A stretch of DNA of 64,000 bases from a bacterium (lineage in GTDB: Bacteria; Patescibacteriota; Minisyncoccia; Phycocordibacterales; CAIZLB01), in assembly GCA_037127815.1 (NCBI GenBank), contig JBAXXP010000001.1:104174-168173 (forward strand). Reading direction: 5' to 3'. The notes beneath the pieces were generated by a model. The model was not told where the DNA came from. It saw only the letters and a program-made list of their open reading frames with translations, and ran no database searches. Below, piece after piece: positions 3,650-46,121 of this stretch (position 1 is the stretch's first letter; each line of letters begins with the position of its first letter). Made by a program: the position numbers and the translations under genes.

Positions 3650-4000
3650 TTATTTCTTTTTAGCTGGAGCTGCTGTTGTCGCCTTAGCTGACTTAGCTGC
3701 GGTTATTTCTGACTGCTTCTTTGCAGCATCAAGTTCCTTCTGCATCTTTCCTCCATGTCTAACGAACTTTCTTGTTGGTGAAAATTCTCCCAATCTGTGA
3801 CCTACCATTTCCTCTGTTACAAGAACTTCAACATGAGTCTTTCCATTGTGTACACCGAAGATAAACCCAACCATTTCTGGTGAGATTTGACTTCCTCTGT
3901 ACCAAGTCTTAATTACCCCAGTTGTCTGAGGGTTTTTGCCTTCTATCTTCTTTAGAAGTTTTGGGGCTATATATGGTCCTTTTTTTAGTGATCTTGTCAT
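3650..4000 (-). CDS. rpsS: 30S ribosomal protein S19 (K/A-rich C-terminal tail)
   Basis: [11 protein letters not shown]...[13 protein letters not shown]...HNGK motifs. Confidence 0.95.
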
Positions 4001-4042
4001 TGTTTGTGTGAAAATAATAGCCCGTGTTGAGCCAGTTAACGT

Positions 4043-4070
4043 ATACTAGCAAAAATAATGAAAGTGTCAA
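4043..4070 (-). promoter_or_regulatory. Putative sigma70-like promoter (TTGACA-16nt-TAGTAT on minus strand) restarting transcription at rpsS
   Basis: minus-strand TTGACA at complement 4065..4070 and TAGTAT at 4043..4048, about 40 nt upstream of rpsS start; needed because upstream genes carry their own terminators. Confidence 0.4.
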
Positions 4071-4256
4071 CCACTAAAAGGCTTATTTTAGGCATTTCGA
4101 TACTATTATTGTAAAGATTATGGTCTAATTTGGGTTTTTGACTAAAATGGCCAAATTTTGATGTTTTTTTTGCCGTTTTTTTTACTGTTTCTATTAACAA
4201 TAATTTATAGAAAATTAGTAATTATATATAAATTATTCATCATAAGGGGGAGTGAA

Positions 4257-4283
4257 GGCTCGGCGGGGTAACCCCGCCGAGCC
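4257..4283 (-). terminator. GC-rich hairpin GGCTCGGCGGGG-TAAC-CCCGCCGAGCC downstream of inserted gene A
   Basis: perfect 12-bp GC stem 9 nt after stop of 4299..4739; near-identical copy at 4871..4901. Confidence 0.5.
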
Positions 4284-4298
4284 TAAATAAATTGCCGA

Positions 4299-4739
4299 TC
4301 AAGATACGCTTTTAAACGCTTCGATTTCAGCTTCTGCAATAATGAACCGCTGCTCATAACAACGAAGTCTTTCCCACATTGGAAGTAATACAATTGAAGG
4401 ATGGTCCTCTCTAAATTGCTGCCAAAGTGGAGTAAATTCCCAAAAATGGAGCAGGTGCTGAATCTCCTTTAGAGTTACCCCATTTTCCTTATAAAACTTT
4501 TCTACAATCAGATTTTGCTTTACCTGATCTCTAGTCCCAGAGAGCTTTTGACTTGCAAAATAAAGGTTTTCTAACATCTCAACTTTTTTCCTAATTGGCA
4601 CTTCAAGATCAAGGATGCAGGAATCAGCTTCTTGAATATTAACCCAAAAAGCAAGTCTTTCCTCCGGAATACTGTTAACATCCCAAATCTGATACAAAAC
4701 ACGAAAAAATCGAGCTTTAGACATATCTAAAAATTTCAT
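4299..4739 (-). CDS. Hypothetical protein, paralog A of tandem pair inserted between rpsS and rplB
   Basis: 146 aa; shares YQIW(D/G)V..P(E/D)ER(L/M)AF, (E/D)KFY(K/W)E(N/H)GV and ERL(R/E)(C/R)(Y/F)EQR(F/Y)I motifs with 4931..5356. Confidence 0.6.
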   Translation of the reverse strand: MKFLDMSKARFFRVLYQIWDVNSIPEERLAFWVNIQEADSCILDLEVPIRKKVEMLENLYFASQKLSGTRDQVKQNLIVEKFYKENGVTLKEIQHLLHFWEFTPLWQQFREDHPSIVLLPMWERLRCYEQRFIIAEAEIEAFKSVS

Positions 4740-4870
4740 ATTTTTGAGGGTGAGAGGTTGATACTTTGGATTTGACCCGTTTGGTCGATAGAAGGAGCAG
4801 ATTTTGCACTCCGTACTTTATTTTATAACGCCATGCAGTTTTGTCAAAATTTAAAAGACTCATATATTAA

Positions 4871-4901
4871 AAGGCTCGGCGGGGTTCCCCCGCCGAGCCT
4901 T
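4871..4901 (-). terminator. Rho-independent terminator (GGCTCGGCGGGG-TTCC-CCCGCCGAGCC followed by T-run on minus strand)
   Basis: hairpin plus TTTTAATAT on minus strand directly after stop of 4931..5356. Confidence 0.65.
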
Positions 4902-4930
4902 TGCTAAAACTTCAAATCTTAGTATACAAA

Positions 4931-5356
4931 TCACGATAATCCGTCGGCAAACTCACTGTAGATATAACGCTGTTCAAACCTTTCCAGACGCTCCAAAGGA
5001 GGCAGATCTGCAACAGATACGTAATCCAAGAGGTAGTTCTTGAAAGGAAGGTTAGACTCCCAATAACGCAAGCGGAAAGCTGGATCTGGTCCAACACCAT
5101 GTTCCCAGTAGAACTTGTCGCTAAAGAGCCCCCTTTCACTGGTATAGCTACCCCAATCTTCTTCACCAATATGAAAAGCTTCCAATGATTGTAACTGAAT
5201 CTCCTTTGGCAAGCCTTCAATGTTTCCTCCTACAGGCCCAAAAAATTTATCGAGAAAAGCCATTCTTTCGTCTGGTGTTGGGCCGACTCCCCAAATTTGA
5301 TAAAGATTATTCAAGTACTCATTGCGCCCGGTCTTTACTGAACTTAACTCTTTCAT
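4931..5356 (-). CDS. Hypothetical protein, paralog B of tandem pair inserted between rpsS and rplB
   Basis: 141 aa; clear paralog of 4299..4739. Confidence 0.6.
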   Translation of the reverse strand: MKELSSVKTGRNEYLNNLYQIWGVGPTPDERMAFLDKFFGPVGGNIEGLPKEIQLQSLEAFHIGEEDWGSYTSERGLFSDKFYWEHGVGPDPAFRLRYWESNLPFKNYLLDYVSVADLPPLERLERFEQRYIYSEFADGLS

Positions 5357-5475
5357 AGTTTTGTGTTTTTGAGGTTTGTGTACTTATTCAGCGGTCAGAT
5401 GACCTATGTAAGGATGCTATTTGCACTCCTACTTTAGACTACACTCCTTAAAAATTTTGTCAAAAACAGACAAAC

Positions 5476-5504
5476 AAAAAACCCGCATTTCTGCGGGGTT
5501 TTTG
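5476..5504 (-). terminator. Rho-independent terminator after rplB (AAAACCCCGCAGAAATGCGGGTTTTTT on minus strand)
   Basis: GC stem plus T-run 40 nt downstream of rplB stop. Confidence 0.6.
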
Positions 5505-5540
5505 TTATTAAGACCAGCCTTCTGCTAATCAAACAAAATA

Positions 5541-6383
5541 TTATCTTCTCTTTCCTACCTTTCTTCTTGTAACAATATGTTTGTTTGAGTACTTCTTTGC
5601 GCGTCTTGATTTTTGTCCCTTTCCAGTTGGCTTTCCGTAGATAGAAATAGCACGTCTTCGTCCTCTTCCTTGTCTACCTTCTCCTCCTCCATGGGGGTGA
5701 TCAACTGGGTTCATGGCAGTACCTCTAACTGTAGGTCTGATACCACGGTGTCTACTAGCTCCAGCTTTTCCGATATTTTGCAAACGATTTTCATCATTTG
5801 AAACCTCTCCAATTGAAGCCCATGCAGTTTCTAGTATCTTTCTAACTTCAGTTGATGGCATCTTAACAAGGGCGTAACCCGCGTCATGAGCAATAACTTC
5901 AGCAAAAGAACCAGCTGAACGAACAAGCTTAGCACCTCCTTCAAATTTCAATTCTATGTTGTAAACAAATGTTCCAACAGGAATGTTCTTTAATGGAAGT
6001 CTGTTACCTGCTTTTACTTCAACCTTCTCGCCAACGATAAACTTATCTCCAACTTTTAGTGACTTTGGCAAAACGACGTATCGCTTTTCTCCATCAGTAT
6101 AAGTTACGAGAGAAATAAATGATGTACGGTTTGGATCGTATTCAATTGTTTCGATCTTTGCAGGAATATCTTTCTTGTCATACTTAAAGTCTATTTGACG
6201 ATAAAGTCTTTTGTGACCTCCACCTTTGTGTCTAGTTGTAATACGTCCAGTGTTGTTACGTCCTGATCCACGTCTAAACCCGTTTGTAAGGGGCTTGTAT
6301 GGCTCGTCAGTAGTAAGAATCTGAGCGTAATTAACGATAGCCATGTTTCGGCGTGAGGGGCTTGTTGGGTTAAATCTTTTCAT
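5541..6383 (-). CDS. rplB: 50S ribosomal protein L2
   Basis: 280 aa; MNPVDHPHGGGEG and GRNNTGRITTRHKGGGHKR motifs. Confidence 0.97.
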   Translation of the reverse strand: MKRFNPTSPSRRNMAIVNYAQILTTDEPYKPLTNGFRRGSGRNNTGRITTRHKGGGHKRLYRQIDFKYDKKDIPAKIETIEYDPNRTSFISLVTYTDGEKRYVVLPKSLKVGDKFIVGEKVEVKAGNRLPLKNIPVGTFVYNIELKFEGGAKLVRSAGSFAEVIAHDAGYALVKMPSTEVRKILETAWASIGEVSNDENRLQNIGKAGASRHRGIRPTVRGTAMNPVDHPHGGGEGRQGRGRRRAISIYGKPTGKGQKSRRAKKYSNKHIVTRRKVGKRR

Positions 6384-8547: not shown

Positions 8548-9741
8548 TTAGGCTACGATCTTAGTTACAACGCCGGCTCCTACAGTTCTACCTCCCTCGC
8601 GAATAGCGAATCTTGTATTGTCTTCAAGAGCAATTGGGGCTACCAATTTAACCTTGAAAGTAACTGTATCACCAGGCATAACCATGTCTACGCCCTCCTT
8701 TAGAGTAACCTCTCCTGTTACGTCAGTTGTACGTACGTAGAACTGAGGTTTGTAACCTGAGAAGAATGGAGTGTGTCGACCGCCTTCTTCCTTCTTAAGG
8801 ATATAGACTTCTGCTTCAAAATCTGTATGTGGCTTAACTGATCCTGGCTTTGCTAGAACTTGACCTCTTGCAAGATCATCCTTCTTAACACTTCTTAGTA
8901 GAATACCAGCGTTGTCTCCAGCTTGACCTTCTGACAATTGCTTGTTGAACATTTCAATACCTGTAACAACTGTTTTTTGAGTATCATGTAGTCCGATGAT
9001 TTCAATTTCTTCACCGATCTTGATTATACCTTTTTCAATTTTACCTGTAACAACTGTTCCTCTTCCTTCAATTGAGAAAATATCTTCAATAGGCATAAGG
9101 AAAGGCTTATCAGTCTCTCTAACTGGTTGTGGAATATAGTTATCTAGAGCGTCAACTAATTCAAGAACCTTCTTTGACCATTCATCATCAATACCTGGAG
9201 CTTCAAGTGCCTTAAGCGCTGAACCTCTGATAACTGGTGCATCTTCGTCAAATCCGTTCTTTGCTAGAAGCTCTCTGATTTCTGCCTCAACTAGGTCAAG
9301 CATGTCTGCATCATCAACCATGTCACACTTGTTCATGAATACAACAATCTTTGGAACACCAACTTGCTTTGCAAGTAGAACGTGCTCGCGAGTTTGTGGC
9401 ATAGGTCCGTCAGTAGCAGCAACAACCAAGATTGCGCCGTCCATTTGAGCAGCTCCTGTGATCATGTTCTTGATGTAGTCGGCGTGGCCTGGTGCATCAA
9501 TGTGAGCATAGTGTCTTGCGTTTGTAGTGTACTCACTGTGTGAAAGTGAAATTGTAATACCACGAGCCTTTTCCTCTGGGGCCTTGTCAATATCTCCGAT
9601 TGACTTAATTGTAGCCTTCATACCTGCTCTGTTAAGAACATTAAGAATAGCTGCAGTTAATGTAGTCTTTCCGTGATCAACGTGTCCAATTGTACCCACG
9701 TTAACGTGAGGCTTTGAACGATCAAAAATTTCTATTGCCAT
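8548..9741 (-). CDS. tuf: Elongation factor Tu
   Basis: 397 aa; [20 protein letters not shown]-motifs. Confidence 0.98.
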
Positions 9742-10028
9742 ATATTTGCTTGATAATTAAATGAATATATCGATATTTATATGGATATCTCCATAAATCT
9801 TTATACTCACCAATTAATAAAAATTAAATTAATAAGTTTCTAAATTTTATCCCCAGTGCTTCTCTCAGTAGTTTAGCTTAATTATGTTTGATTCTTAATA
9901 CTGCCTTAAATCAAAAAGAAGATTGGGATAAAAAACCGCCAAAAGGCGTCTAATGGATAATATCAGAAGGTGGGGGTTTGTCAATGTCAAAGCTATAACC
10001 TACCCCCCCCCACTTAAGGTTAATCAAC

Positions 10029-10090
10029 CCTGAATTCTGTTTCGGTCTTTTGACCATCGTCAGACAAGATACACATCTTATGACAGAACC
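10029..10090 (-). ncRNA. Hammerhead ribozyme, type III (HHR2): UUCUGUC|AUAAGAU-GUGU-AUCUUGU-CUGACGA-U-GGUC-AAAA-GACC-GAA-ACAGAA
   Basis: read on minus strand: GUC cleavage triplet, 7-bp stem I with tetraloop, CUGANGA box, 4-bp stem II with AAAA loop, GAA, and 6-bp stem III ACAGAA/UUCUGU; one extra U between A9 and stem II. Confidence 0.6.
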
Positions 10091-10136
10091 CGTTCACTCA
10101 ACGGGCAGAGTTGCACAGTTTATGTGCTTTATTACG

Positions 10137-10376
10137 CTATTCACATAACATTTCGAGGTATTTATCATCAAAATTTTCTACCTCATTCCAATCTTCACCT
10201 TGTCTTTTGACAAAAATGAAGTCTTCAACCCTTAAGGTTGTATTTGAAAAGACGAAGGCACAGCCTTCCTCTAGGGTCTTAACGGTTTGGAAATAAGCCA
10301 TATAGGCAAATCCACCACCCGGGGCAAAACCCCAGCACTTAACCCATGTTACCTTTGCTTTTTGTGTGTTTTGCAT
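10137..10376 (-). CDS. Small hypothetical ORF (79 aa, MQNTQKAKVTWVKCWGFAPGGGFAY...) lying between the two hammerhead ribozymes
   Basis: ATG with AGGA 13 nt upstream on minus strand; no recognised family; coding status unproven. Confidence 0.3.
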   Translation of the reverse strand: MQNTQKAKVTWVKCWGFAPGGGFAYMAYFQTVKTLEEGCAFVFSNTTLRVEDFIFVKRQGEDWNEVENFDDKYLEMLCE

Positions 10377-10439
10377 AGTTATAAACGTCCTAACTTTAGA
10401 GATTAAGGCACTCGTAGCTACACAAAACGTTAAAAAGAA

Positions 10440-10494
10440 CCACTGTTTCGCTTTTTTAAGCTCATCAGTCGAAGTACGCACTTCGAGACAGAGG
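10440..10494 (-). ncRNA. Hammerhead ribozyme, type III (HHR1): CCUCUGUC|UCGAAGU-GCGU-ACUUCGA-CUGAUGA-GCUU-AAAA-AAGC-GAA-ACAGUGG
   Basis: read on minus strand: perfect catalytic core CUGAUGA...GAAA, GUC cleavage site, 7-bp stem I with GCGU loop, 4-bp stem II (G10.1-C11.1) with AAAA loop, stem III formed by flanks. Confidence 0.75.
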
Positions 10495-11384
10495 ACGGAT
10501 AGAACGTCTATCCGTGATTTACTACAAGTACTCTATCGAGCAGTTGTAATTTCTGTTCAAAAGGTAGTTTTCTCTACCTCGGCTTTTCATCTCGCGATAA
10601 AAGCAGAACTCAAAGCAATTATTTGCTTTGAACGTACTCGCGATAATCCGCAAGGGACATCACGAGCCCGTCAACGACGACGTAGGTCATGGTTTATACT
10701 TTTTGAAATGTTCATTGCTATTAACACACTGTATTTTGGCTAATATTTATTAATTCTATTTAAGGACTCAAAATCAGCTCGATTTTGGATTAAATTAACA
10801 GTGTTTACTTATCTGTGTTGTAGTATAGCCATGTTCATATTTTTGTCAAGATGTTTTGACACTTTGTTTTTATTTTGTCATTTGTACCCTTTTATATAGC
10901 CATATTTAATCAATATAAAAGTAAATTGATAACAACAAAACTCTATAAAGGGTATACAAAATTAGAAAATATATTATATTATGTTTTTTTATATTGCCAA
11001 TCTAATTACCCAAGAATAAGGTCGTTTTAGCTTAAATCTATTAAATGTCTAAATTGCTTGACAAAAGAATCAGACATGCTACATTGTGATACGGAATTTG
11101 ACTGTACTTTCGGCTATAAAGCCGACAGATCAAAGTGTTCTAACCCAAAAGTGCAATGCCCGATTAACCCTAAAGGAAAGGTGGCTTGTCGTGAACCTAG
11201 CCGGGTTTTCACGACAGGCCTCTGAGTACTAAAAAAGGGACTTGTTTATAACTTCTGGGCATAGTAACCGCAAGCACACCATATACACCACCACCACAAT
11301 GCATGATTAATTAGAATGATTGTCCTTTTTGAAAACCCTTCATATTTGTAAACCTCCCCACCAAGGTAGTTCACAAACAAAAAA

Positions 11385-11412
11385 AGCTCGGTTCCTACCC
11401 AGGAACCGAGCT
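11385..11412 (-). terminator. Rho-independent terminator after TrmB-like gene (AGCTCGGTTCC-TACCCA-GGAACCGAGCT plus T-run)
   Basis: 11-bp stem followed by TTTTTTT on minus strand, 20 nt after stop. Confidence 0.6.
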
Positions 11413-11433
11413 AATTTTTTACCTAATTTTTTC

Positions 11434-12198
11434 TTATTTACCTTCCTCTATATTTTTAAAGGCTAATTCAAACAAAGAGGTTAGGGTTTCCGCAAAATCC
11501 TTATTATAAACAATCATTCCACCCAATTTTGATCCCAAAGTAGCTATTCTTACCTTATTGTTGTAAATACTAATATCGCAACTTAAAGGATACTTTTTAC
11601 CATCTACGAACAACCTATTCCCCAAGTTAGCACTTCTGTCAATTTCCCCTTTTGAATACGTATATATTGATTTACCGGAAATTTTCTTATCTACCCTTAT
11701 TTTACGGAATCTATTACTATCGGCCTCTGAAAACAGACTTTCTATTAAATCCTTTGGATAAATCATATACATAGTGCCGCCTTTGTCATCTTTTGATTGG
11801 AAAAGCTCCTCAGTCATACTTATAACGCCCTCTTTTCCTTCAAAAAATTTAACTACAGGCTTTTCAGCATCCTCTCTGTAAATACTCTTAAGTTGTGGAA
11901 CTATATCCTTAAGTCTTTTACTTTGTTCATCCAGCTGTATTTTACGTCTTTCAATATAAGTCTCCAGTCTTTCTGGTGGTTCAGCTTGGTATCTAACCTT
12001 TTTATCAACTAAAACTTCAAATATTAGCCCTTTATTTGAAAGCGATTCAAGTACTGGATAGATAGTTGTACGATTAATTTTAGTCTTCTCAGCTAAATCA
12101 AGTACAGAATCATTGTCTACCTCCAAAAGAGACAGGTAAACCTTTGCCTCTTTCTCTGATAAACCTAAATCTTCAAGATATTTTTCAAACATAAGCAT
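11434..12198 (-). CDS. TrmB-family transcriptional regulator (N-terminal winged HTH plus TrmB C-terminal domain)
   Basis: MLMFEKYLEDLGLSEKEAKVYLSLLE...TTIYPVLESLSNKGLI wHTH; ORF runs to 12282 but overlaps upstream gene, so start at 12192/12198 preferred. Confidence 0.7.
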   Translation of the reverse strand: MLMFEKYLEDLGLSEKEAKVYLSLLEVDNDSVLDLAEKTKINRTTIYPVLESLSNKGLIFEVLVDKKVRYQAEPPERLETYIERRKIQLDEQSKRLKDIVPQLKSIYREDAEKPVVKFFEGKEGVISMTEELFQSKDDKGGTMYMIYPKDLIESLFSEADSNRFRKIRVDKKISGKSIYTYSKGEIDRSANLGNRLFVDGKKYPLSCDISIYNNKVRIATLGSKLGGMIVYNKDFAETLTSLFELAFKNIEEGK

Positions 12199-12271
12199 AT
12201 TATACCATAGAATATTTAAATTTCGTTTTAATAGACAATTTTTGGTTTTAAATTGTACTGCAAATGTAGGA

Positions 12272-13354
12272 TTATTTACCAAATATTCCAGATAATAGAT
12301 TGTTTACACCTTGCCAGATTGAAGCAAATAACCCAAAATTAGACAACTGAGATACCTTAGTACTAATTTTAACAACACCGGTACTTGTTGCGTTAAACTT
12401 AGGATTGTTTGTATCCGTAATTACAATTTTGTAAGGTTTATCATACTGAACAGCCTGACCAACAATATCCCAGGTTACACTTGCTTTTCCTCCACCTAAA
12501 TTGGAACCAGCTGTTACTGAGCCTAAAATACTAGTTCCAACCCATCCAAAAGGAACTAACCCAATACTCACAGAATCAGTAGAAGATAAATTATTAGACG
12601 TCCAAACAATATCTTTTGTTACAACTGTTGTTTTTGTCTTAATATAGACCTTCAGATTAGGGTTACTAGTTGTTGTAGTAAAAGGTACCCAAGTCTCATC
12701 AACACTCAGAGATAATAAAGACAATGAACAAGGCAAGGAGATAGTAAGAGGAAATTGATTAGTAGTTTTTCCAGTATACAGAGCTCTTGCTTGAACCTTA
12801 GCTACTTGCCCTATTTCGTAATTATTACACAGAATATAGTTCGGAACTGTCAAAATTTCTGTAGTTGAAGCAGCGTTAATTTGCTTAATTAAAACACTAT
12901 CGATATACAAAGACCAACTATTAACCTTTGAATTTGGGATATATAGATTACCGATTTTAAACGAATGATTACCTGGGTTGCTCTCAGTATCCACAGAATA
13001 TATGTAAGGAGATGTTGTTGCAAGAACAATAGTTGAGGTAGCTACTGTTGAGCTTGCTAATTGCTTATTTAGCGTCTGAAGCTGCAGATTTAATGAGATT
13101 AGATTTTGCTGTAGTGTTGCAACAGAGACATCCGCTGAGGATAACTGGTTTTGAAGTGCTAAAATCTGTGAGTTTATTGATGAAATTTGAGTTCGAAATG
13201 AGCTAATCTGTGCAGTTGTTGATGCAATATCCTTTTTTGTTGAGTCTATCTGAGTTTGAATCTGTGCTGTTGTTGCTGCGTTTGTAATGAAGGGTGACAC
13301 CAGCATGGAAACGCCTATCAGCGATAGTGCAACCAAATATATTTTTATTTTCAT
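12272..13354 (-). CDS. Secreted hypothetical protein (signal peptide, Q/S/T-rich coiled-coil, beta-rich C-terminal domain)
   Basis: 360 aa; N-terminal MKIKIYLVALSLIGVSMLVSPFITNA signal-like; no family recognised. Confidence 0.6.
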   Translation of the reverse strand: MKIKIYLVALSLIGVSMLVSPFITNAATTAQIQTQIDSTKKDIASTTAQISSFRTQISSINSQILALQNQLSSADVSVATLQQNLISLNLQLQTLNKQLASSTVATSTIVLATTSPYIYSVDTESNPGNHSFKIGNLYIPNSKVNSWSLYIDSVLIKQINAASTTEILTVPNYILCNNYEIGQVAKVQARALYTGKTTNQFPLTISLPCSLSLLSLSVDETWVPFTTTTSNPNLKVYIKTKTTVVTKDIVWTSNNLSSTDSVSIGLVPFGWVGTSILGSVTAGSNLGGGKASVTWDIVGQAVQYDKPYKIVITDTNNPKFNATSTGVVKISTKVSQLSNFGLFASIWQGVNNLLSGIFGK

Positions 13355-13373
13355 AAGTTATATTATACAACAA

Positions 13374-13412
13374 AAAAACAACCCCTAGTTTGAGGAGTTG
13401 TTTTTTTTGTGG
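13374..13412 (-). terminator. Rho-independent terminator after fusA
   Basis: minus-strand AACAACTCC-loop-GGGGTTGTT stem followed by TTTTTT. Confidence 0.55.
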
Positions 13413-13427
13413 ATAAGTTTTATCAGA

Positions 13428-15581
13428 TTATTTTCTTGCCTCAACGATAGCCTTCTCAACGTTAGCTGGAACTGTATCGTAGTGATCAAATTCCATTGAA
13501 ACTGAACCTCTTCCCTGTGTCATTGATCTAATATCTGTTGTATAACCGAACATTTCAGATAGAGGAACCATGGCTCTAATAACTCTAATTCCACCTGGTC
13601 TATCATCCATTCCTTCAATTTGACCTCTCTTTGATGAAAGTGAACCGGTAACGTCTCCCATGAATTGTTCTGGTGTTAGAGCTTCAACCTTCATTATAGG
13701 TTCAAGAATAACAGGTCTTGCGCGTCTTGCTCCCTCTTGGAAAGCTTGAGAAGCTGCAATCTTGTAAGCGATTTCTGATGAGTCAACATCATGGTATGAA
13801 CCAAATGTTAATTCACAAGATACATTTGTTAGAGGGAAACCAGCAACAATACCTCTTTCCATAGCTTCCTTAACTCCCTTTTCAACTGCTGGAATGAATT
13901 CTGTTGGAATAACACCTCCCTTAATTGAGTCAATAAACTCAAAGTCAGCTGTTCTATGAACGTTTTTAGGAATTTTAGCTCCTTCCTCAAGTGGCTCTAG
14001 GTGCTTAATTGTCATTCTAACGTGTCCATATTGCCCCTTACCTCCAGATTGCTTAACATATTTATGTTCAGCTTCTGCACTTCCTAGAATTGTCTCTCTG
14101 TATGCAACCTGAGGAGCACCAACATTAGCCTCAACACCAAACTCTCTCTTCATTCTATCAACCATAATTTCAAGGTGTAGTTCACCCATTCCAGAAATAA
14201 CAGTATCTCCAGTTTCTGTGTTTGATGTAACTCTAAAAGTTGGATCTTCATCACCTAATTTCTTAAGTGCAACACCCATTTTCTCTTGATCAGCCTTTGT
14301 TTTAGGCTCGATTCTAAGTGAAACAACAGGTTCTGCAAATTTAATAGGGTCAAGAATGATTGGGTGATTTTCATCACAGAAAGTATGAGATGTCTTTGCT
14401 TCCTTAAGACCAACAGCCGCAACGATTTCTCCTGCAAAAACTTTCTTAACATCCTCTCTTTTATTTGCCTGAAGTCTAACGATACGCCCAAGTCTCTCCT
14501 TATTTCCTGTTGTTGAGTTGTAAATATATGAACCAGCTTCAATTGTTCCTGAATAAACACGGAAGAATGTAAGTTGTCCAACAAACGGGTCAGTTTGTAG
14601 CTTGAAAGCAAGAGCAGAAAAAGGCTCTTCATCTGAAGCGTGTCTTTCAATTACATCTCCTGTTTCTGGATCGAGACCTTTTATAGCAGGAATATCTAAT
14701 GGAGATGGAAGGTAATCGATAACAGCATCCAAAACTAGTTGAACACCCTTATTTTTAAGAGCAGAACCTGTGAAAACTGGGAATACCTTGTTCTCAATAA
14801 CTCCTTTTCTAAGAGAAGCCTTAAGCTCATCTATTGTAAACACAGCGTCATCACCTTGTTCTAGATATCTGTTCATCAACTCTTCATCAAATTCAACACA
14901 CTTCTCTACAAGCTCTTGTCTTCTCAGCTTTGACTCATCAAGCATGTCAGCAGGAATTTCTTCTTCTGTAACAGTACTTCCCATATCTCCTGTAAATGTG
15001 TATGACTTCATCTTAAGAAGGTCAATTACTCCAGACAGATTCTCTTCTTCTCCGATTGGAAGTTGCATTCTTATTGCATTCTTATTTAGTCTATCCAAAA
15101 TTGATTGATATGATCTCTCAAATGATGCACCCATTCTATCTAGCTTATTAATAAAACATATACGTGGAACGTGATATTTATCAGCTTGTCTCCAAACTGT
15201 CTCAGATTGAGCTTCAACACCAGCAACCCCATCAAATACTACAACTCCACCATCAAGAACCTTTAGAGAACGTTCAACTTCAACTGTGAAGTCTACGTGA
15301 CCTGGTGTGTCAATAATGTTGAAACGGTGCATCTTAGAAAGATCCTTACCCATGTAAACTGGATTCCAGAAACAAGTAATAGCAGCTGCAGTAATTGTAA
15401 TACCACGCTCTTTTTCTTGTTCCATCCAGTCTGTTACAGCTTCACCTTCATGAACCTCTCCAATTTTATGGCTCATTCCTGTGTAATAAAGAACACGTTC
15501 TGATGTTGTTGTCTTTCCAGCATCAATGTGGGCGATAATACCGAAGTTTCTAATTTTCTCTAATGGGTAATCACGTTGCAT
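13428..15581 (-). CDS. fusA: Elongation factor G
   Basis: 717 aa; [21 protein letters not shown] motifs and EF-G domains IV/V. Confidence 0.98.
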
Positions 15582-15670: not shown

Positions 15671-16141
15671 CTACCAAGCGAAGTGAGCAAACGCCTTGTT
15701 AGCATCAGCCATCTTGTGTGTATTCTCCTTCTTTCTTACTGCCTCTCCTTCATTCTTTGAAGCTGCAATAATTTCATCTGCTAATTTAAGGTGTATAGGC
15801 TTTCCCTTCTTTGCGCGAGCTGCATCAATAATCCATTTCATAGATAGGAAAGTTCTTCTTTCTTGTCTAACCTCTCTAGGAACTTGATAGTTTGCACCTC
15901 CAACTCTTCTTGATCTAACTTCAACCATAGGAGCTGTGTTTTTAAGAGCTGTCTCAAAAACTTCCATTGGGTTTTCTGTCTTCAATGTTTCCATTATTGC
16001 ATCAAAAGTACCATAGATGATCTTTGTTGCAGTTTCCTTCTTACCACTCCACATTATGTAGTTGATAAACTTTGCGACAACATCTGACTTATATTTCGTA
16101 TCCGGTTTAATCGTAAACTTCTTTTTTAATTTTCTTCGCAT
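15671..16141 (-). CDS. rpsG: 30S ribosomal protein S7
   Basis: 156 aa; S7 conserved core, str operon order. Confidence 0.95.
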   Translation of the reverse strand: MRRKLKKKFTIKPDTKYKSDVVAKFINYIMWSGKKETATKIIYGTFDAIMETLKTENPMEVFETALKNTAPMVEVRSRRVGGANYQVPREVRQERRTFLSMKWIIDAARAKKGKPIHLKLADEIIAASKNEGEAVRKKENTHKMADANKAFAHFAW

Positions 16142-39906: not shown

Positions 39907-41460
39907 ATGATTACAAACCAAATAGCCCTTTCATTAGCAGTAATGACAGGTGGCGTAGGTTTTGTTATTGGATACTTAATCAGAATATTGGTTGCGCTAA
40001 GTACAAAAAACTCTCTTGAACTTAATGCAAAGAAAATTAAAACAATAGCAAAAGAGGAGGCCGTTGAAATAATATCTAGAGCTCAAAATGATGCAACGGA
40101 AATCATGTCGGACGCAAAAAAAGAAATAAAAGAAAAGGAAGAAAATATACAGAAGAATGAAGATCGATTAATAAAGAAGGAACAAATGGTTGATAGCAGA
40201 CAGATTGAAGTTGAAAAGGACATCAAAAAAATTGATGAAGAAATAGAAAAGATACGTTCTAGAAAAAATAAACTCTCCGAAGATGAGGAGCAGCTTAAAA
40301 TATTAAAGGATCAAGAGAGCCTTGTTATAGAGCGTATTTCTGGATTAACAAATGAAGAAGCGAAGAAGATTGTGTTTGATAAAATTGAAAAAGACTCAGC
40401 TGATGACCTTGTTAATAGAATGAATAAGTTTGATTTGTTTGCAGAGGATTCACTTGAGGATAAAGCGAGGGAGATACTAACAACGGTAGTTCAAAGACTT
40501 GCTTCTTCTGTTAATGCAGAAATATTTTCTTCTGCTGTTCAAATTCCATCTGAGGATATTAAAGGAAAAGTTATTGGAAAAGAAGGAAGAAATATTAAAA
40601 CTTTTGAAAAAGAAACGGGTGTTGAAGTTTTGGTTGATGAAGGACAGGGATACATTACATTGTCATGTTTTGATCCAATAAGAAGACAGGTTGCAAAAAT
40701 TGCATTAGAAGCACTTATTGCCGATGGAAGAATACAACCAGCAAGAATTGAAAAGGAAGTTGAAATGGCGAGAGACTCAATAATAAAAGAAACAAAGAAA
40801 TTAGGCAGCATGGCATGTTATGAAACAGGTGTCGTTGGACTTGATCCACGTATTTCAACAATCCTAGGAAGACTGCAATATAGAACTAGTTACGGACAAA
40901 ATGTATTGCAACATTCAATAGAATGTTGTCATCTTGCAGGAATGTTAGCAGAAGAACTTGGTGCTGATGTTGCAGTTGCAAAAGCAGGTGCGCTACTGCA
41001 TGACATTGGAAAAGCACTAGATCATGAAGTTACAGGAAGTCATGTTGATATAGGGAAAAAACTGCTGGAGAAGATGGGTGTTGATAAAAAAATAATTCAA
41101 GCAATGCAATCGCATCATGATGAATACCCATATGAAACACTAGAGGCTAGAATTGTTCAAACAGCAGATGCTCTTTCTGGAGGACGTCCCGGCGCAAGAA
41201 GCGACACTATGGAAAACTATATTAAGAGACTTAATGATCTTGAAGATATAGCAAACTCTTTCTCTGGAGTAGAGAAATCTTATGCACTTCAAGCTGGACG
41301 AGAAATCAGAATTTTTGTTTCACCAGAAAAAATATCAGATTATGATGCAAAAAATATAGCTAGGAATATAGCTATTAAAATTGAGAGGACATTGAAGTAC
41401 CCAGGAGAAATAAAAGTTACAGTGATAAGAGAAAATAAGATTGTTGAAATAGCTAGGTAA
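39907..41460 (+). CDS. rny: Ribonuclease Y
   Basis: N-terminal TM, coiled coil, KH domain, HD domain LLHDIGK. Confidence 0.9.
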   Translation: MITNQIALSLAVMTGGVGFVIGYLIRILVALSTKNSLELNAKKIKTIAKEEAVEIISRAQNDATEIMSDAKKEIKEKEENIQKNEDRLIKKEQMVDSRQIEVEKDIKKIDEEIEKIRSRKNKLSEDEEQLKILKDQESLVIERISGLTNEEAKKIVFDKIEKDSADDLVNRMNKFDLFAEDSLEDKAREILTTVVQRLASSVNAEIFSSAVQIPSEDIKGKVIGKEGRNIKTFEKETGVEVLVDEGQGYITLSCFDPIRRQVAKIALEALIADGRIQPARIEKEVEMARDSIIKETKKLGSMACYETGVVGLDPRISTILGRLQYRTSYGQNVLQHSIECCHLAGMLAEELGADVAVAKAGALLHDIGKALDHEVTGSHVDIGKKLLEKMGVDKKIIQAMQSHHDEYPYETLEARIVQTADALSGGRPGARSDTMENYIKRLNDLEDIANSFSGVEKSYALQAGREIRIFVSPEKISDYDAKNIARNIAIKIERTLKYPGEIKVTVIRENKIVEIAR

Positions 41461-41678
41461 AATAAGGGTATTTCTGGATATTTAAAAAAATCTGGCTAAT
41501 TAGTAAATGAAATGTTTTAACAAAATCGGCTCAATTTATTAAAAATTGACGAATATGTCAAAATGTGTCAAAACTTTTTTAATCTATTAAAGCTATTGAT
41601 TCAAAATATGGCTTAATATATAATCAATAGCGAGGTTATAGCGGTCGACAATTATAAAACACAATTACTTGTACAAAT

Positions 41679-41951
41679 ATGAATAAAGCAGCATTGGTTG
41701 ACAAAGTAAATGAAGTACTAGGAACAACAAAAGTTCAATCTGAGGAAGTTGTAAATACTATCTTTGATAGTATTACAGCTACACTTAAGAAAGGCGAAGA
41801 AGTTTCAGTAGCTGGTTTCGGTATCTTTTCTGCAAAGAAGAGAGCCGCACGTTCTGCTCGTAACCCAAGAACAGGAGAAATCGTAAAGGTTGCAGCTATG
41901 AATGTTCCAAAGTTTAGAGCAGCAAAGGCTCTTAAGGAAGCAGTTAAATAA
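41679..41951 (+). CDS. hup: DNA-binding protein HU
   Basis: 90 aa; GFGIFSAKKRAARSARNPRTGE beta-arm motif. Confidence 0.92.
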   Translation: MNKAALVDKVNEVLGTTKVQSEEVVNTIFDSITATLKKGEEVSVAGFGIFSAKKRAARSARNPRTGEIVKVAAMNVPKFRAAKALKEAVK

Positions 41952-41986
41952 TTTCAGTAAGTCGGTTAGATAGTTTCCACTTAACA

Positions 41987-42014
41987 AAATACCCCAGCGC
42001 AAGCTGGGGTATTT
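41987..42014 (+). terminator. Rho-independent terminator after hup (AAATACCCCAGC-GCAA-GCTGGGGTATTT)
   Basis: 10-bp stem plus T-run. Confidence 0.6.
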
Positions 42015-42082
42015 TGTTAGTTTGCTATATTTAATCAATAACTTATACCCCCTATTTTCTATACCCACCAACACAGATATAG

Positions 42083-43153
42083 TTATCTCACAATCACGGC
42101 CTGGTTAGTAACCCCTGGAACTGCATAGAAATTGTCCATTAATTTTTCTGTTGTCCAATACTCAAAACTTCTTCCATTAATAGGATCGTTTAAATAAAAT
42201 CCTGATGGATTGTCCTTTGGACCGGCAACACCAACAAGAACTCTGGCGTGTTCCCCTTTAATTGCTGTGACCTCTCCCCCGCCTGGAACTTTCCATGAAT
42301 AAGCGGGTGTAGCCATTGATGTATAACCCCAAAAAACAATAGGATGACCCGCCCTTATTTCACGAGCCAGTGTTGTGGCAGTTATGATTGTTTCATACGA
42401 CGCGTCTCTCCCGTATGAAATTGCCGCTTTCATAACTGGCGCACCATAAACCCCATACCCCCCAAAATCATCACCTACCCCAATACTACCGACAAACATC
42501 TCCCTCGGATCATCCCATTCGTTTAATTCAACATTTTTTGGCCTAGGTTTATAACCAAATTTCTGAACAATCTCCATGTCATCAGCAATATTTATTCCAT
42601 AATACGCAAGTGCCATTCTAAGTGAAGCAGCTTCACAGCTATTCCTATACTGCTGTGCGAAATATGGAACTTTCAGTTTGAATACATCGGTTGGTTCAAT
42701 TACAACTGGAACCCTAGTCTGTATCAATGCTGGCGTTGATACTGCTACGGGCGCCATTATTGGTGCTTGTTCTGTTTTTGTTTCTATTGGTATTGTAATT
42801 GCAACAACCTTAAGTTCTACTTTCTCCTCAGAAGGCTCGTTTTCAGAAATAGATGCTTCTTTTGTCACTAAATGCACAGTATTTAGTGTACTGTCTTTTT
42901 CATCACTAACTGTGGCGACTACCGTCATGTCATCAGAAGCTCTCATCAAACCACTGTTTGTATTAGCGGTGACAATGAAGCCACCATAGACATTGTCAGC
43001 CTTAGTAGGTGTTCCATTTTGTGATACAGATGATTGTGACTCAGAATAAACAGTATTAACCCTCGTATTTACAGGGGTTACCAAATTTATTCGTATATAC
43101 AACGAAGCCATTATTATCAAAAGAGCGAGAAAGATATAAATCTTTATTCTCAT
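42083..43153 (-). CDS. Membrane-anchored peptidase C39-like (YvpB/C39_2-type papain-fold) protein
   Basis: N-terminal TM; C-terminal VPYFAQQYRNSCEAASLRMALAYYG matches C39-like catalytic Cys region; ORF upstream part overlaps tRNA so start at MMRIK. Confidence 0.65.
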   Translation of the reverse strand: MRIKIYIFLALLIIMASLYIRINLVTPVNTRVNTVYSESQSSVSQNGTPTKADNVYGGFIVTANTNSGLMRASDDMTVVATVSDEKDSTLNTVHLVTKEASISENEPSEEKVELKVVAITIPIETKTEQAPIMAPVAVSTPALIQTRVPVVIEPTDVFKLKVPYFAQQYRNSCEAASLRMALAYYGINIADDMEIVQKFGYKPRPKNVELNEWDDPREMFVGSIGVGDDFGGYGVYGAPVMKAAISYGRDASYETIITATTLAREIRAGHPIVFWGYTSMATPAYSWKVPGGGEVTAIKGEHARVLVGVAGPKDNPSGFYLNDPINGRSFEYWTTEKLMDNFYAVPGVTNQAVIVR

Positions 43154-43155
43154 CA

Positions 43156-43229
43156 TGGTGCGGGATAAGGGAATCGAACCCTTGTCTACTGCTTGGAAGG
43201 CAGTCATTCTACCACTAAACCAATCCCGC
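43156..43229 (-). tRNA. tRNA-Gly (anticodon TCC), CCA encoded
   Basis: GCGGGAT acceptor/ATCCCGC, anticodon stem ACUGC/GCAGU with loop CUUCCAA, T-arm GGGTTCGATTCCC. Confidence 0.85.
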
Positions 43230-43355
43230 TTACTTTTAAACTATACCAAAATTAGGATAAAAGTAAATACTTTTTATTTAATCGTGCTAAAATAGTATTA
43301 ATAAGATATATTTTGATAGGAACAAATAATACTCAGGTAATCATTAAAACTCAAA

Positions 43356-44531
43356 ATGAACAACATTGAATTTATAATAAGCACCATTATGTCCCTTATA
43401 AAACAGGTTTTTATAATTATAGTTGCAGTTTTTAGTCTATTCACGTCAACACTTTCTATCAGCCCAACCATCCCCTCAGCGAGCAATTTAACAGGTACAA
43501 CATCTGATTACACAAAAGAAAGGGCAAACAAAAATACGAATGATATAATCGCTGTTTTTAACCCACTTACACCAAAGGACGACATAATAAATACGTTAGA
43601 TGGAGCGACAAAGAATATTAAACTCAATCTTTTGAACCTTACAGCTCCAACCTATCAGGTGATTGATGTTCAAAACAACAAAACAACATCAAATATTCCC
43701 GAATCACCCAAAACCTCAACAACAATAGATGCTTTAACAAAACCTCAACAAACAGAGTCTGTTATATCGATAAAATCAAAAGGATCCGAAGAAAGCGTTA
43801 TAAATATCAGATGTGAGAACAAGACCAAGAATACTCTAAAGGTAATAACTGGAAGTGGAATAATAATAAGCTCTTCTGGTTTAATTTTAACAGCAGCCCA
43901 TGTTGCAGCACCAGTTTATGCACAACAACTTAATAACTCATATAACTGTTATGCTCGAATAAACAATCCTGCCTCGGGGAAATACCCCCTTAAGGTAGTT
44001 TACATCGATCAAGCTTGGATAAATAAGTACTACTCTGTATTTGATAAGACTTACACAGAGACAGGTGAACATGATGTAGCAATTCTGAAAATAGATAATT
44101 CAAATTCTAAATTGACCCCAAGTGAAATAATTAACCTTAATAATACTGCCTTTGCGGCCTTATCTACTGAAGTTCCAAGCGTTGGTCAATCTATTGTAAT
44201 AAAATCTTACCCAGCTGATGTTTATGGCAAGTTAGGTGTCTTTACGGTGCTTCCAAGAAAGTCAGAAATAAATTCTATCGACAAGATTACAGACTTTAAT
44301 GGAGGCCTAAGTAGTTTGGACCTAATAGAGACCTCACCAAGCAACCTGGGGCAATCTGGGGCTTCAGGAGGGGGTATTTTTAACAACCAAGGACAACTGA
44401 TTGGAATTATATCTAATATGATTTCATCCAATATTTTGTTTAAAAATAAAGTAAGAGCTACGTCTATTAGATATATGAACGATGAAATAACCAAAAATGG
44501 AGGGAGATCTATCTTCGAAGATAACCTATAG
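43356..44531 (+). CDS. Secreted trypsin-like (S1 family) serine protease
   Basis: signal/TM, TAAHV His motif, HDVAILK Asp, GQSGASGGGIF Ser motif. Confidence 0.7.
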   Translation: MNNIEFIISTIMSLIKQVFIIIVAVFSLFTSTLSISPTIPSASNLTGTTSDYTKERANKNTNDIIAVFNPLTPKDDIINTLDGATKNIKLNLLNLTAPTYQVIDVQNNKTTSNIPESPKTSTTIDALTKPQQTESVISIKSKGSEESVINIRCENKTKNTLKVITGSGIIISSSGLILTAAHVAAPVYAQQLNNSYNCYARINNPASGKYPLKVVYIDQAWINKYYSVFDKTYTETGEHDVAILKIDNSNSKLTPSEIINLNNTAFAALSTEVPSVGQSIVIKSYPADVYGKLGVFTVLPRKSEINSIDKITDFNGGLSSLDLIETSPSNLGQSGASGGGIFNNQGQLIGIISNMISSNILFKNKVRATSIRYMNDEITKNGGRSIFEDNL

Positions 44532-44886
44532 GTGCATCGTTCTTTTTTTCATCAGCTTTTAGTCCGCCGCTATTAAATGCATCTAGAACAAATTTTTGCT
44601 GAATTTTAATCACAGTATCCCAATTGTCATCAGGAGATAGATTATTAGTCTTTTCATGACCACAAGTCTCACATCTATTTGTGACTCTATATTTATCTTT
44701 CTTTAGCTCTATCTTTATAGGTTTCATAAGACCTTGGCATTCTGAAAGTCTGTCACCGGGATTAATGTCAACGTGTTTACTCCATAAACAGTTTGAACAG
44801 TGATCTGTGTAACCATCCCCTTTTACCTCAACTCCACATACTTCACATGTAAAGTTCTCTTTTTTCTTTGTGAATTTTTTACTCAT
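44509..44886 (-). CDS. RNHCP-domain zinc-ribbon protein
   Basis: 125 aa; CEVCG...HCSNCLWSKHVD...GDR...RCETCG pattern. Confidence 0.5.
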   Translation of the reverse strand: MSKKFTKKKENFTCEVCGVEVKGDGYTDHCSNCLWSKHVDINPGDRLSECQGLMKPIKIELKKDKYRVTNRCETCGHEKTNNLSPDDNWDTVIKIQQKFVLDAFNSGGLKADEKKNDAPIGYLRR

Positions 44887-44921
44887 ACGAATTTCTTTTC
44901 TTACTTATACTAAACTATTTG

Positions 44922-44994
44922 TCGGGGCGCCGGGATTCGAACCCGGAGTCACTTGCTCCCAAAGCAAGCATGTTAGCCGTTACACCACGCCCCG
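44922..44994 (-). tRNA. tRNA-Pro (anticodon TGG), CCA not encoded
   Basis: CGGGGCG acceptor, anticodon stem CUUGC/GCAAG loop UUUGGGA, T-arm CCGGGTTCGAATCCCGG. Confidence 0.85.
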
Positions 44995-45099
44995 ATTTGT
45001 AGAAATAGCATATCACACATATTTTATTTTTGCCAATATTAGATGTTACATAAACATTAGCTTAGTCTGGTTTAAAAAAATAATGTAAAACACAGTCAA

Positions 45100-45711: not shown

Positions 45712-45990
45712 TGTTTATTATTTATTACTATTAACAAACGGATGATATACAAACCAGATGAAGAACCTATAAAGATTTATTAAAGAAAAGCAAAAGAAAA
45801 GATGTACTTTTTAAGAAAAGAGACAAAATATATAGATCACCTTCAACCTAGTGTTTCTCATGAAACGTTGAAAATGAGGTTACAAACGGGTTAAACATAC
45901 AAAAAAACACCATTTAGTAGCAAAATAAGGGTTTCATAGGAAACACCCCGTATTATTGTCAAGAAAATAGCAATATTTTACTAAAAGACA

Positions 45991-46121
45991 GTGGATAGCC
46001 ACTTATCCACACAATTAAACCTTATTTATAGCCATATATTGCGTTTTTCCTTATAAAATAGCATTTCTGTATAAGCCTGATTTCTATGTCTTTTATACAC
46101 ATATCCACGGAGTTATCCACA
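45991..46121. promoter_or_regulatory. DnaA-box cluster: TTATCCACA at 46004..46012 and 46113..46121 plus degenerate boxes at 45991..45998 and 46101..46109 in AT-rich intergenic DNA
   Basis: perfect 9-mer consensus DnaA boxes, one forming head-to-head pair GTGGATAG-CCAC-TTATCCAC. Confidence 0.4.

Follow-up and report, generated by a model that had tools for sequence, protein, structure and literature searches.

Why do fusA and tuf, which are neighbours in the str operon, lie 3.6 kb apart in the bacterium considered here, and what is the DNA between them? The locus belongs to a 64-kb stretch of DNA (the window), in which all genes of the fusA–tuf part are on the minus strand, in the order rpsG, fusA, an open reading frame (ORF) of 360 amino acids (aa), a TrmB-like ORF, 1.7 kb without long ORFs, tuf, rpsJ and rplC. 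The host is an uncultured Patescibacterium of the Paceibacterota/Parcubacteria type; its closest fusA matches among species-representative genomes are 79% identical, and the same proteins are present in an NCBI metagenome-assembled genome (MEI6042073, MEI6042075). A preliminary description, made from the sequence alone, had stated that fusA normally abuts tuf. This holds for ordinary bacteria, in which the two genes are 23–150 bp apart (non-Patescibacterial loci), but not for the ten closest Patescibacterial relatives that were measured, in which the distance is 248–5956 bp. The same description reported that the 3.6 kb holds a terminator, a secreted-protein ORF, a regulator with its own terminator and 1.7 kb without long ORFs, all of which was confirmed. 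As to what this DNA is, we hold with moderate confidence that a conserved Paceibacterota module accounts for approximately 2.2 kb of the gap (12270 down to 10032), that this copy was relocated into an already variable fusA–tuf spacer beside an unrelated orphan gene, and that its regulator, operators and hammerhead ribozymes work as proposed below. The elements of the module are as follows, listed from the regulator towards tuf.

12205–12213, minus strand: promoter-like extended −10 box TGGTATAAT, read from the sequence, just upstream of the regulator ATG
11434–12198, minus strand: TrmB-family winged-helix regulator, 254 aa (PF01978, 1e-15)
11385–11412, both strands: bidirectional intrinsic terminator with a 12-bp stem, 7 G-C pairs and T-runs on both strands (z = −5.3)
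11075–11245, plus strand, antisense to the regulator: conserved structured RNA gene, predicted to start at ~11092 and perhaps extending to 11412
11046–11063, both strands: candidate operator O_L, palindrome TGTCTAAATTGCTTGACA, whose TTGACA half is the −35 box of the predicted plus-strand promoter P_L
10844–10861, both strands: candidate operator O_R, perfect palindrome TGTCAA-N6-TTGACA, whose TTGACA half (10849–10844) is the −35 box of the predicted promoter P_R
10493–10715, minus strand: structured leader (block B) of ~230 nucleotides (nt), conserved in four genomes, its 3′ end set by hammerhead 1
10442–10492, minus strand: hammerhead 1, type III with canonical core, found by Rfam, a descriptor scan and the family covariance model R1; predicted cleavage 3′ of C10487
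10137–10376, minus strand: cassette gene for a 79-aa protein, between hammerheads 1 and 2
10032–10091, minus strand: hammerhead 2, type III with an extra U after A9 and a 9-bp stem III, found by the descriptor scan and R1; predicted cleavage 3′ of C10082

The 1.7 kb between the regulator and tuf had been described as lacking credible protein genes. Besides the 79-aa ORF (10137–10376), no credible long ORF was found in 9742–11433, but this DNA is not filler, as it is densely packed with regulatory and RNA elements. Searches of the gap for tRNA, tmRNA and known RNA families returned the hammerhead only.

The regulator had been suggested as possible cargo; it is instead the conserved anchor of the module, and has conserved operators. 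Comparison with Pfam showed that its N-terminal part contains a TrmB-type winged helix-turn-helix (PF01978; residues 36–104 of the 282-aa ORF, 57.7 bits against a cut-off of 25.6). The gene was previously taken to start at TTG 12282, whereas alignment with homologs places the start at ATG 12198, which gives a protein of 254 aa. At E ≤ 1e-5, 630 proteins match the regulator, the best 120 of them at 52–79% identity; all are ~250 aa long, and the homologs that bear a name are all from Paceibacterota. Judged by these matches, the regulator belongs to a well-conserved Paceibacterota family of ~250-aa proteins. The TrmB/TrmBL1 equivalogs of NCBIfam cover only residues 7–133, scoring 17–29 bits against cut-offs of 500–650. 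Neither a C-terminal sugar-binding effector domain nor a full-length equivalog match was detected, the C-terminal half contains no Pfam domain, and a sequence search of the PDB with the regulator returned nothing at E ≤ 0.001, with TrmB (3qph) appearing only at E 0.19. The extended −10 box TGGTATAAT falls in the 73-nt spacer between the 360-aa gene and the regulator and may be the promoter element of the latter. The terminator at 11385–11412 ends the regulator gene, and probably also ends the convergent plus-strand RNA. In some metagenomic loci, two to three copies of the regulator family were seen within 10 kb (L144:2646-6536; L171:878-9794), which suggests duplication or tandem modules.

Two sets of loci were used for comparison, namely 80 fusA-centred loci from species-representative genomes and 80 more loci around regulator homologs, obtained by a scan of JGI metagenomes with the regulator alignment. 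Downstream of the regulator gene, the window contains two palindromes on predicted −35 boxes, one perfect (O_R) and one with a single mismatch, compared with 0.2 per window expected in shuffled sequence. The promoters predicted at these sites diverge. P_L has its −10 box, TACATT, at 11080–11085 (TGnTATACT in relatives), and the minus-strand promoter P_R (TTGACA-16-TATACT, −10 box at 10827–10822, predicted start near 10815) is directed into the hammerhead cassette; an AT-rich spacer separates O_L from O_R. When one mismatch was allowed, 99 copies of the palindrome were found within 1.5 kb downstream of regulator homologs (0.96 per kb) and 13 elsewhere (0.02 per kb), a 46-fold enrichment. The palindromes are typically paired, ~370 and ~570 nt past the regulator stop codon, with a third copy immediately before the regulator start in five loci. 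Across six aligned genomes, the −35 and −10 boxes are unchanged. The conserved pairs of palindromes beside the regulator gene are candidate binding sites of the regulator. A third palindrome in the window (62379–62396) lies in coding-looking DNA and was taken as a chance occurrence.

Both ribozymes of the ribozyme-flanked mini-ORF that the preliminary description had noted are real, and so is the 79-aa ORF between them. Exactly two compact type III hammerheads were found by the descriptor scan in the 64 kb (10491–10443 and 10091–10032), both on the minus strand. Hammerhead 1 matched Rfam RF00008 at 10440–10494 (44.2 bits, E 1.3e-7). The catalytic core is complete in each, consisting of GUC before the cleavage site, CUGAUGA and GAAA in hammerhead 1, and of GUC before the cleavage site, CUGACGA with one extra U, and GAAA in hammerhead 2; the one-base insertion of the latter was also found in L114 and L144. 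Minimum free energy (MFE) folds gave a three-way junction for both, in which loops close stems I and II and stem III is left open. Under the model R1, which was built from 41 hammerheads, hammerhead 1 scored 72 bits and hammerhead 2 60.8 bits (10036–10087), and E-values of the hammerheads ranged from 1e-13 to 1e-17. Double (compensatory) changes occur at 12 of the 16 pairs of the R1 alignment; stems I and II covary heavily, the core is invariant, and stem III is nearly invariant in sequence (0–2 double changes in 41 sequences). This near-constancy could reflect common descent, or a need for the 3′ end of a unit to pair with its own 5′ ribozyme core. Ligation of a nicked hammerhead into a circle depends on pairing of this sort. 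Cleavage after both C10487 and C10082 is predicted to release a 405-nt RNA (10486 down to 10082).

The hammerheads are linked to the regulator, as the preliminary description had supposed. As a set, the regulator, palindromes, structured RNA and hammerhead arrays were encountered again in ~80 metagenomic Paceibacterota loci. In 0.81 Mb of regulator-centred loci, R1 had 94 hits, many of them absent from its seed; 90 were on the regulator's strand and downstream of it, two were the window pair and two were on the opposite strand. In 1.25 Mb of fusA-centred control loci from similar organisms, there was a single marginal hit. At least one hammerhead, on the same strand as the regulator, was present in 33 of the 46 homolog loci that have at least 2.5 kb of downstream sequence. 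The first hammerhead lies at a median of 1.44 kb past the regulator stop codon (0.94 kb in the window), and arrays consist of 1–6 hammerheads spaced by 214–2692 nt. On the contigs of the closest regulator homologs, a gene-poor stretch resembling window 10434–11255 is followed by two to four same-strand hammerheads. The same hammerhead subfamily (R1 scores of 60–75 bits) was also observed in 62 IMG/VR viral contigs (L181–L242), mostly 50–65 kb long, often as three to five copies per locus on one strand; these 62 contigs contain no regulator homolog, no TGTCAA-N6-TTGACA palindrome and no proteins shared with the module.

On the plus strand, antisense to the regulator, the module encodes a structured RNA, for which no Rfam match was obtained at E ≤ 10. 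Its core is a predicted hairpin of ~20 bp with compensatory changes, the centre of which (GTCGTGAA/TTCACGAC) lies at 11188–11215 and not at 11196–11228, where this stem had been placed before; the loop contains the self-complementary CCUAGG. RNAalifold detected compensatory changes in 19 of 40 pairs in five genomes, and in a six-genome alignment C.A mismatches on the minus strand correspond to G.U pairs on the plus strand. Because of these compensatory changes and of the minus-strand C.A mismatches that become G.U, the structured element was assigned to an RNA made from the plus strand. A covariance model of this RNA (R2) had 18 hits in the regulator-centred loci, 16 of which were just downstream of the regulator gene and on the opposite strand; of the other two, one was the window itself and one, inside the L100 hit, was a short, partial match on the same strand as the regulator. 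In the 1.25 Mb of control loci, R2 had zero hits. In the alignment of these sequences (A8), which was fitted to R2, covariation is seen at 35 of 40 pairs, and the fraction of paired cells is 90%, compared with 36–43% when partner columns are shifted. That the plus-strand RNA represents a new structured RNA family is well supported. The base composition given earlier for this region needs correction: the part drawn as AT-rich at 10740–11380 is so only from ~10740 to 11040 (24–27% GC), whereas 11040–11380 has ~41% GC and contains the structured RNA gene.

Between P_R and hammerhead 1 lies block B, whose nucleotide sequence is 73–82% identical to that of L100, L095 and L128 and whose hairpins are invariant. 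It holds the hairpins and other motifs quoted in the preliminary description, all of which are present (GGATAGAACGTCTATCC at 10497, AAAGCAATTATTTGCTTT at 10612, and CTCGCGATAA at 10591 and 10637), together with two ATCGCGAG repeats and a 23-aa micro-ORF. RNAalifold predicted six hairpins in block B, with compensatory changes in 11 of 61 pairs in four sequences, and an nhmmer profile searched in more distant loci found it in four genomes only. A protein-coding origin of the conserved blocks A and B was considered and rejected, as tblastx matches are spread over all frames and only the 23-aa micro-ORF is consistently open. This micro-ORF (MTYVVVDGLVMSLADYREYVQSK; 10619–10690, minus strand) is open, with similar sequence, in all four leader-bearing genomes, and its stop codon falls within a hairpin loop, this hairpin having compensatory changes; the micro-ORF is either a leader peptide or a coincidence.

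The cassette gene between the two hammerheads has a homolog in L095, an 80-aa ORF with 48% aa identity (E 2e-21), which is likewise immediately upstream of a hammerhead. Because differences between the two genes are distributed over the codon positions as 25/22/49, with saturated synonymous divergence (dS), the 79-aa gene is real and under purifying selection. The L095 protein, the sole true homolog, came from the comparison of loci; a database of 5.8 billion clusters returned only the 79-aa ORF itself, no match was found in Pfam or NCBIfam, and the AlphaFold 2 (AF2) model was too poor for a fold search (predicted local distance difference test, pLDDT, 54). As in the window, where two same-strand hammerheads flank a gene, relatives have genes of changing identity within arrays of 1–6 hammerheads. 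The units between hammerheads encode mostly orphan proteins, and some have no ORF at all; the few recognizable domains are STIV_B116-like, receiver, Ro60/TROVE, Bro-N, MazF, kinase and ECF S-component. One hammerhead-delimited cassette (L174:13434-15631) encodes a Ro60/TROVE-vWA protein (PHROG “RNA-binding protein”, E 5e-41). Relatives of Ro60/TROVE work with small structured Y RNAs, which is of note here because the module, too, includes a structured RNA.

How, then, did the module come to lie between fusA and tuf? Homologs of the 360-aa protein, the regulator and the mini-ORF are missing beside fusA in all 80 related str loci. The spacers of the ten closest Patescibacterial relatives contain unrelated lineage-specific genes (membrane or secreted orphans, nucleotidyltransferase/HEPN-like pairs), and no nucleotide similarity to the window was found in these ten spacers past the tuf start. 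Because these spacers vary in both length and gene content, the fusA–tuf junction is a generally permissive slot in the clade. Among the 43 regulator loci of at least 6 kb, none adjoins fusA, and in 27 the regulator homolog lies among rny, hup, cca, xth, xer, rpsO, a gene with an NYN domain and fam39 (our label for a gene family of this usual neighbourhood); in L145, for example, the order is rpsO, NYN, regulator, hammerhead array, fam39. The window has its own copies of these neighbour genes at 39952–52832, with no regulator or hammerhead among them, and its NYN gene (50995–51495) is followed directly by fam39 (51909–52832), with nothing of the module in between. The closest relatives (L095, L096 and L098) retain the module in the usual neighbourhood. 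Since the module sits elsewhere in other genomes, while the usual neighbourhood in the window is without it, the regulator, plus-strand RNA, operators and hammerhead block have moved as a unit, in this case into the fusA–tuf slot. The anatomy of the module and the linkage of its parts are well established, and its conservation, covariation and changed genomic position are shown. A second case of a module in a ribosomal gene cluster was seen in L120 (5075–10753), where it stands directly after tuf-rpsJ-rplC-rplD-rplW-rplB-rplS, 3.7 kb past tuf. A tyrosine recombinase gene near the module in relatives could be mistaken for the integrase of a mobile element; it is a core xer-like gene with conserved synteny, 60% identical to the window copy (49453–50322).

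The designation of this DNA as an accessory island is thus partly justified. Spacer content is lineage-specific, the module is found at a different position in other genomes or is absent from their str loci, and the arrangement is variable across the clade; yet neither an integrase, boundary repeats nor a compositional anomaly was found, and the arrangement is fixed inside the species. Fourteen contigs of the same species, from different JGI, ENA and Logan samples, show no difference over the entire gap, and therefore offered no within-species variation from which selection could be mapped; the few differences are confined to a block of mismatches within fusA, where one contig ends, and to the tuf-side ends of two short contigs, including a one-base change in a G-run. 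No presence/absence polymorphism was seen, and the GC content of the coding part (0.30–0.37) is like that of the flanks. No convincing attachment (att) sites or further copies of the module were found elsewhere in the window. The features that flank the module are as follows.

15671–16141, minus strand: rpsG
13428–15581, minus strand: fusA
13363–13416, minus strand: intrinsic terminator of fusA, a 15-bp A/U-rich hairpin (~13372–13407, inverted repeat I1, which reads on both strands) followed by a U-run (MFE −19.7 kcal/mol, z = −5.1)
12272–13354, minus strand: orphan 360-aa protein with a signal peptide, a Q/S/T-rich coiled coil, an uncharacterized C-terminal domain and a C-terminal hydrophobic helix
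9742–10031, minus strand: tuf-proximal region without homology to the module or to relatives
8548–9741, minus strand: tuf, followed by rpsJ, rplC and further genes

The 360-aa protein, also named as possible cargo in the preliminary description, is an orphan. Its N-terminus (MKIKIYLVALSLIGVSMLVSPFITNA, cleaved before an A) resembles a signal peptide, and residues 28–105 consist of 46% Q/S/T. Pfam and NCBIfam gave coiled-coil families only, and searches of 5.8 billion clusters (word-indexed) and of 1.84 billion representatives (exhaustive HMMER) returned only the protein itself and coiled-coil noise. The beta-rich C-terminal domain ascribed to it is represented only by strands in a low-confidence AF2 single-sequence model (pLDDT 47), which was too poor for a fold search. 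Because each close relative has a different gene upstream of the regulator, and none of these genes is related to the 360-aa protein, the gene for this putative surface protein lies outside the conserved module, as a separate occupant of the fusA–tuf slot.

At the other end of the gap, homology to other genomes ends at ~10032, and the final 290 nt before tuf differ. This region contains a promoter-like TTGACA-16-TGnTATTAT (9984–9957), a small hairpin with a T-run (9930–9948) and an AT-rich stretch, and is probably the promoter and 5′ untranslated region of tuf itself. A G9 homopolymer (10003–10011), located between hammerhead 2 and the promoter-like site, has one G fewer in the same-species contig L093, either through assembly error or through true length variation. 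The window also contains a second split ribosomal operon (3650–6383, minus strand), in which rplB (5541–6383) and rpsS (3650–4000) lie ~1.5 kb apart. This gap holds two paralogous orphan ORFs, 4931–5356 (141 aa) and 4299–4739 (146 aa), which are 27% identical (E 1e-14); in 39 related loci the rplB–rpsS gap is 8–974 bp, and none has the two ORFs.

The model that we favour for the operation of the module is drawn from its layout and from precedent, as regards binding by the regulator, firing of the promoters, cleavage in vivo and insulation of transcripts. A dimer of the TrmB-family regulator would bind both TGTCAA-N6-TTGACA palindromes, each of which covers the −35 box of one divergent promoter, and would thereby repress both promoters. 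The leftward promoter, P_L, would make the structured plus-strand RNA of ~150–320 nt, ending at the shared bidirectional terminator, and the rightward transcript from P_R would carry the leader, hammerhead 1, the 79-aa gene and hammerhead 2. Self-cleavage during transcription would yield three pieces, namely a ~330-nt leader RNA, a 405-nt monocistronic mRNA bearing a 5′-OH and a 2′,3′-cyclic phosphate, and the downstream remainder, so that each unit would be insulated from those next to it as well as from tuf. Arrays of up to six hammerheads between variable accessory genes would be fed by the same promoter in other genomes; the window holds a minimal, one-cassette version.

Several points tell against this model. 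In principle, each palindrome might be explained as a back-to-back pair of −35 boxes instead of a binding site for a protein, and a protein bound there may be another than the adjacent regulator. The score of hammerhead 1 is below the Rfam gathering score of 48.5, and hammerhead 2 is not listed by Rfam at E ≤ 10. Pairing in the R1 alignment is 97%, a figure that is partly circular because the seed was chosen by a pairing-demanding scanner, although the many double changes and the non-seed hits are not circular; the 35/40 covariation of the plus-strand RNA likewise comes from an alignment fitted to its model. No hammerheads were detectable in 13 of the 46 homolog loci. To account for the move, neither a recombinase or transposase in 9742–13427 nor boundary repeats were found, the repeats at the boundaries resembling chance matches. 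Finally, Perreault et al. (2011; PMC3088659) could not say what purpose clustered hammerheads serve.

A different account would regard the locus as the remnant of a prophage or other integrated element, that is, a decaying “immunity region” (repressor, divergent promoters, early genes) in which the hammerheads are passively inherited and useless to the cell. The occurrence of the same hammerhead subfamily in the 62 IMG/VR contigs, the Bro-N, STIV_B116-like, MazF and Ro60-type proteins in cassettes of relatives, the hypervariable content and the changing position all speak for it, and Perreault et al. placed such clusters in prophages near integrase and marR genes (PMC3088659). However, no integrase, capsid, tail or replication genes were found in the window island or within 10 kb in relatives, where the nearby “integrase” is the core xer-like gene; the regulator family is missing from 2.9 million viral contigs; and the viral hammerhead loci share neither proteins nor the operator motif with the module. 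Moreover, the regulator, operators, plus-strand RNA and promoters have been kept over 43–79% protein identity, a conservation that speaks for prolonged selection in cellular genomes, and the mini-ORF is under purifying selection. We consider this account unlikely. Somewhat less likely still is that the 405-nt RNA becomes a stable circular mRNA or non-coding RNA in the manner of retrozymes and viroid-like RNAs, through pairing of its 3′ end (...UUCUGUC>p) with GAAACAG of its own 5′ core and ligation by the reverse reaction or by an RtcB-type ligase. Hammerhead cleavage in general leaves the ends that such ligation requires, both window hammerheads have a CUGUC/GAAACAG stem III, so that the junction would rebuild hammerhead 1, and many units are 250–500 nt long. 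The near-invariance of stem III, while stems I and II covary, is what compatibility between neighbours would demand, but it fits common descent or ribozyme duplication equally well. In addition, the ribozymes are outside long direct repeats, unlike those of retrozymes, many units of relatives are 1–2.7 kb long and contain several genes, and circular or spliced products of bacterial clusters were sought by Perreault et al. and none was found (PMC3088659).

The position of the module beside tuf raises the further possibility that it serves this gene, hammerhead 2 insulating the tuf mRNA and giving it a defined 5′ end while the regulator tunes EF-Tu expression. Hammerhead 2 is on the same strand as tuf and precedes its start codon by 290 nt, the only hairpin between the two being weak (4 bp, with a T-run), and the L120 module also adjoins ribosomal-protein genes; there, however, it is downstream, not upstream, of tuf, in ~80 other loci it is unconnected to tuf, and in the window a strong promoter-like site (11/12 matches, with TG) intervenes between hammerhead 2 and tuf. 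We regard such a service as very unlikely. Ordinary growth of the spacer, through a gradual build-up of unrelated DNA between the two genes, with motifs arising by chance, would agree with the variable and often enlarged spacers of the clade, but it deserves almost no credence: the E-values of the hammerheads were obtained under a model that is nearly silent in control DNA, the operators, RNA and leader are conserved in the same order in other genomes, and the R1, palindrome and R2 counts already contradict it. There is also a more ambitious version of the relocated-module reading, which is no more probable, in our estimate, than the prophage remnant. It would make the module a dedicated “RNA cassette” system, kept on the chromosomes of Paceibacterota, in which the TrmB-type repressor and its partner RNA gate the promoter, hammerheads cut out exchangeable units, stem III lets these units close, possibly into circles, and the module hops between core operons. 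If true, the system would be an RNA-level counterpart of the integron, with a defined cellular role for bacterial hammerheads and a new class of RNA.

To our knowledge, no clear function has been assigned to bacterial hammerheads in the 15 years over which they have been catalogued. The module sets them in a fixed, recognizable circuit, made up of a regulator, candidate operators, a promoter, a leader and cassettes and conserved in a large group of reduced-genome, uncultured bacteria, and the question of what hammerheads are for thereby becomes experimentally addressable. A by-product is a candidate operator for a widespread Patescibacterial regulator. The locus also points to junctions within ribosomal and elongation-factor operons as insertion-tolerant slots in Patescibacterial genomes, and it holds a lesson for annotation, in that an apparently “gene-free” 1.7 kb can be functional sequence.

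The layout of the module resembles the immunity switch of temperate phages, in which a repressor-like gene likewise lies beside back-to-back promoters, with −35 boxes in palindromes and small variable genes downstream of the rightward promoter. The regulator of the module, however, is a TrmB-type winged helix and not of the cI or Cro type, it has its own putative promoter and is transcribed towards the switch, the leftward promoter would make a structured RNA and not the repressor mRNA, and lysis, lysogeny and structural genes are missing. In synthetic ribozyme insulators (RiboJ), a self-cleaving ribozyme between the promoter or 5′ leader and the coding sequence standardizes the 5′ end of the mRNA and decouples it from its neighbours; the module differs in being natural and in having a ribozyme at both ends of each unit, and insulation would be its predicted effect. 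Retrozymes and viroid-like circular RNAs also have two type III hammerheads, which delimit an RNA of a few hundred nt whose ends can rebuild a hammerhead. Unlike theirs, the unit of the module encodes a protein, is DNA-encoded in a bacterium and is under a candidate protein-controlled promoter; long direct repeats are lacking, and the two ribozymes share only the ~15-nt core and stem III (D10). By analogy only, integron arrays are comparable, as one promoter feeds a row of variable, mostly orphan cassettes bounded by a structured element. In the module, the cassettes are bounded by a catalytic RNA motif, whose ribozyme core is invariant, and not by an attC recombination site, IntI is absent, and the neighbouring xer-like gene is core and does not lie beside the window's copy.

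The closest precedent is provided by the clustered hammerheads of prophage regions, which flank a gene or a short run of genes that varies between genomes (Perreault et al. 2011; PMC3088659). Three of these clusters cleave in vitro, and one, a triple set, does so also in E. coli; the processing of long transcripts was proposed for them, and no circular or spliced products were detected (PMC3088659). In those clusters, as in the module, several same-strand hammerheads bracket variable genes, a winged-helix regulator is nearby (marR in the Agrobacterium example), and a long transcript is proposed to be cut into gene-length RNAs (PMC3088659). The module differs in that it lies in Patescibacterial chromosomes among core genes, without phage genes or an element integrase, in that it is tied to one TrmB-family regulator, a palindromic operator pair and a divergent structured RNA, and in that all of its hammerheads are type III and of one subfamily. 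In the searchable library, we found no paper that links hammerheads with Patescibacteria, the candidate phyla radiation or Parcubacteria. The window pair therefore belongs to a known kind, that of clustered hammerheads flanking variable genes, and what is new here is the Patescibacterial host, the linkage to a TrmB regulator and its candidate operators, the divergent structured RNA and the residence among core genes.

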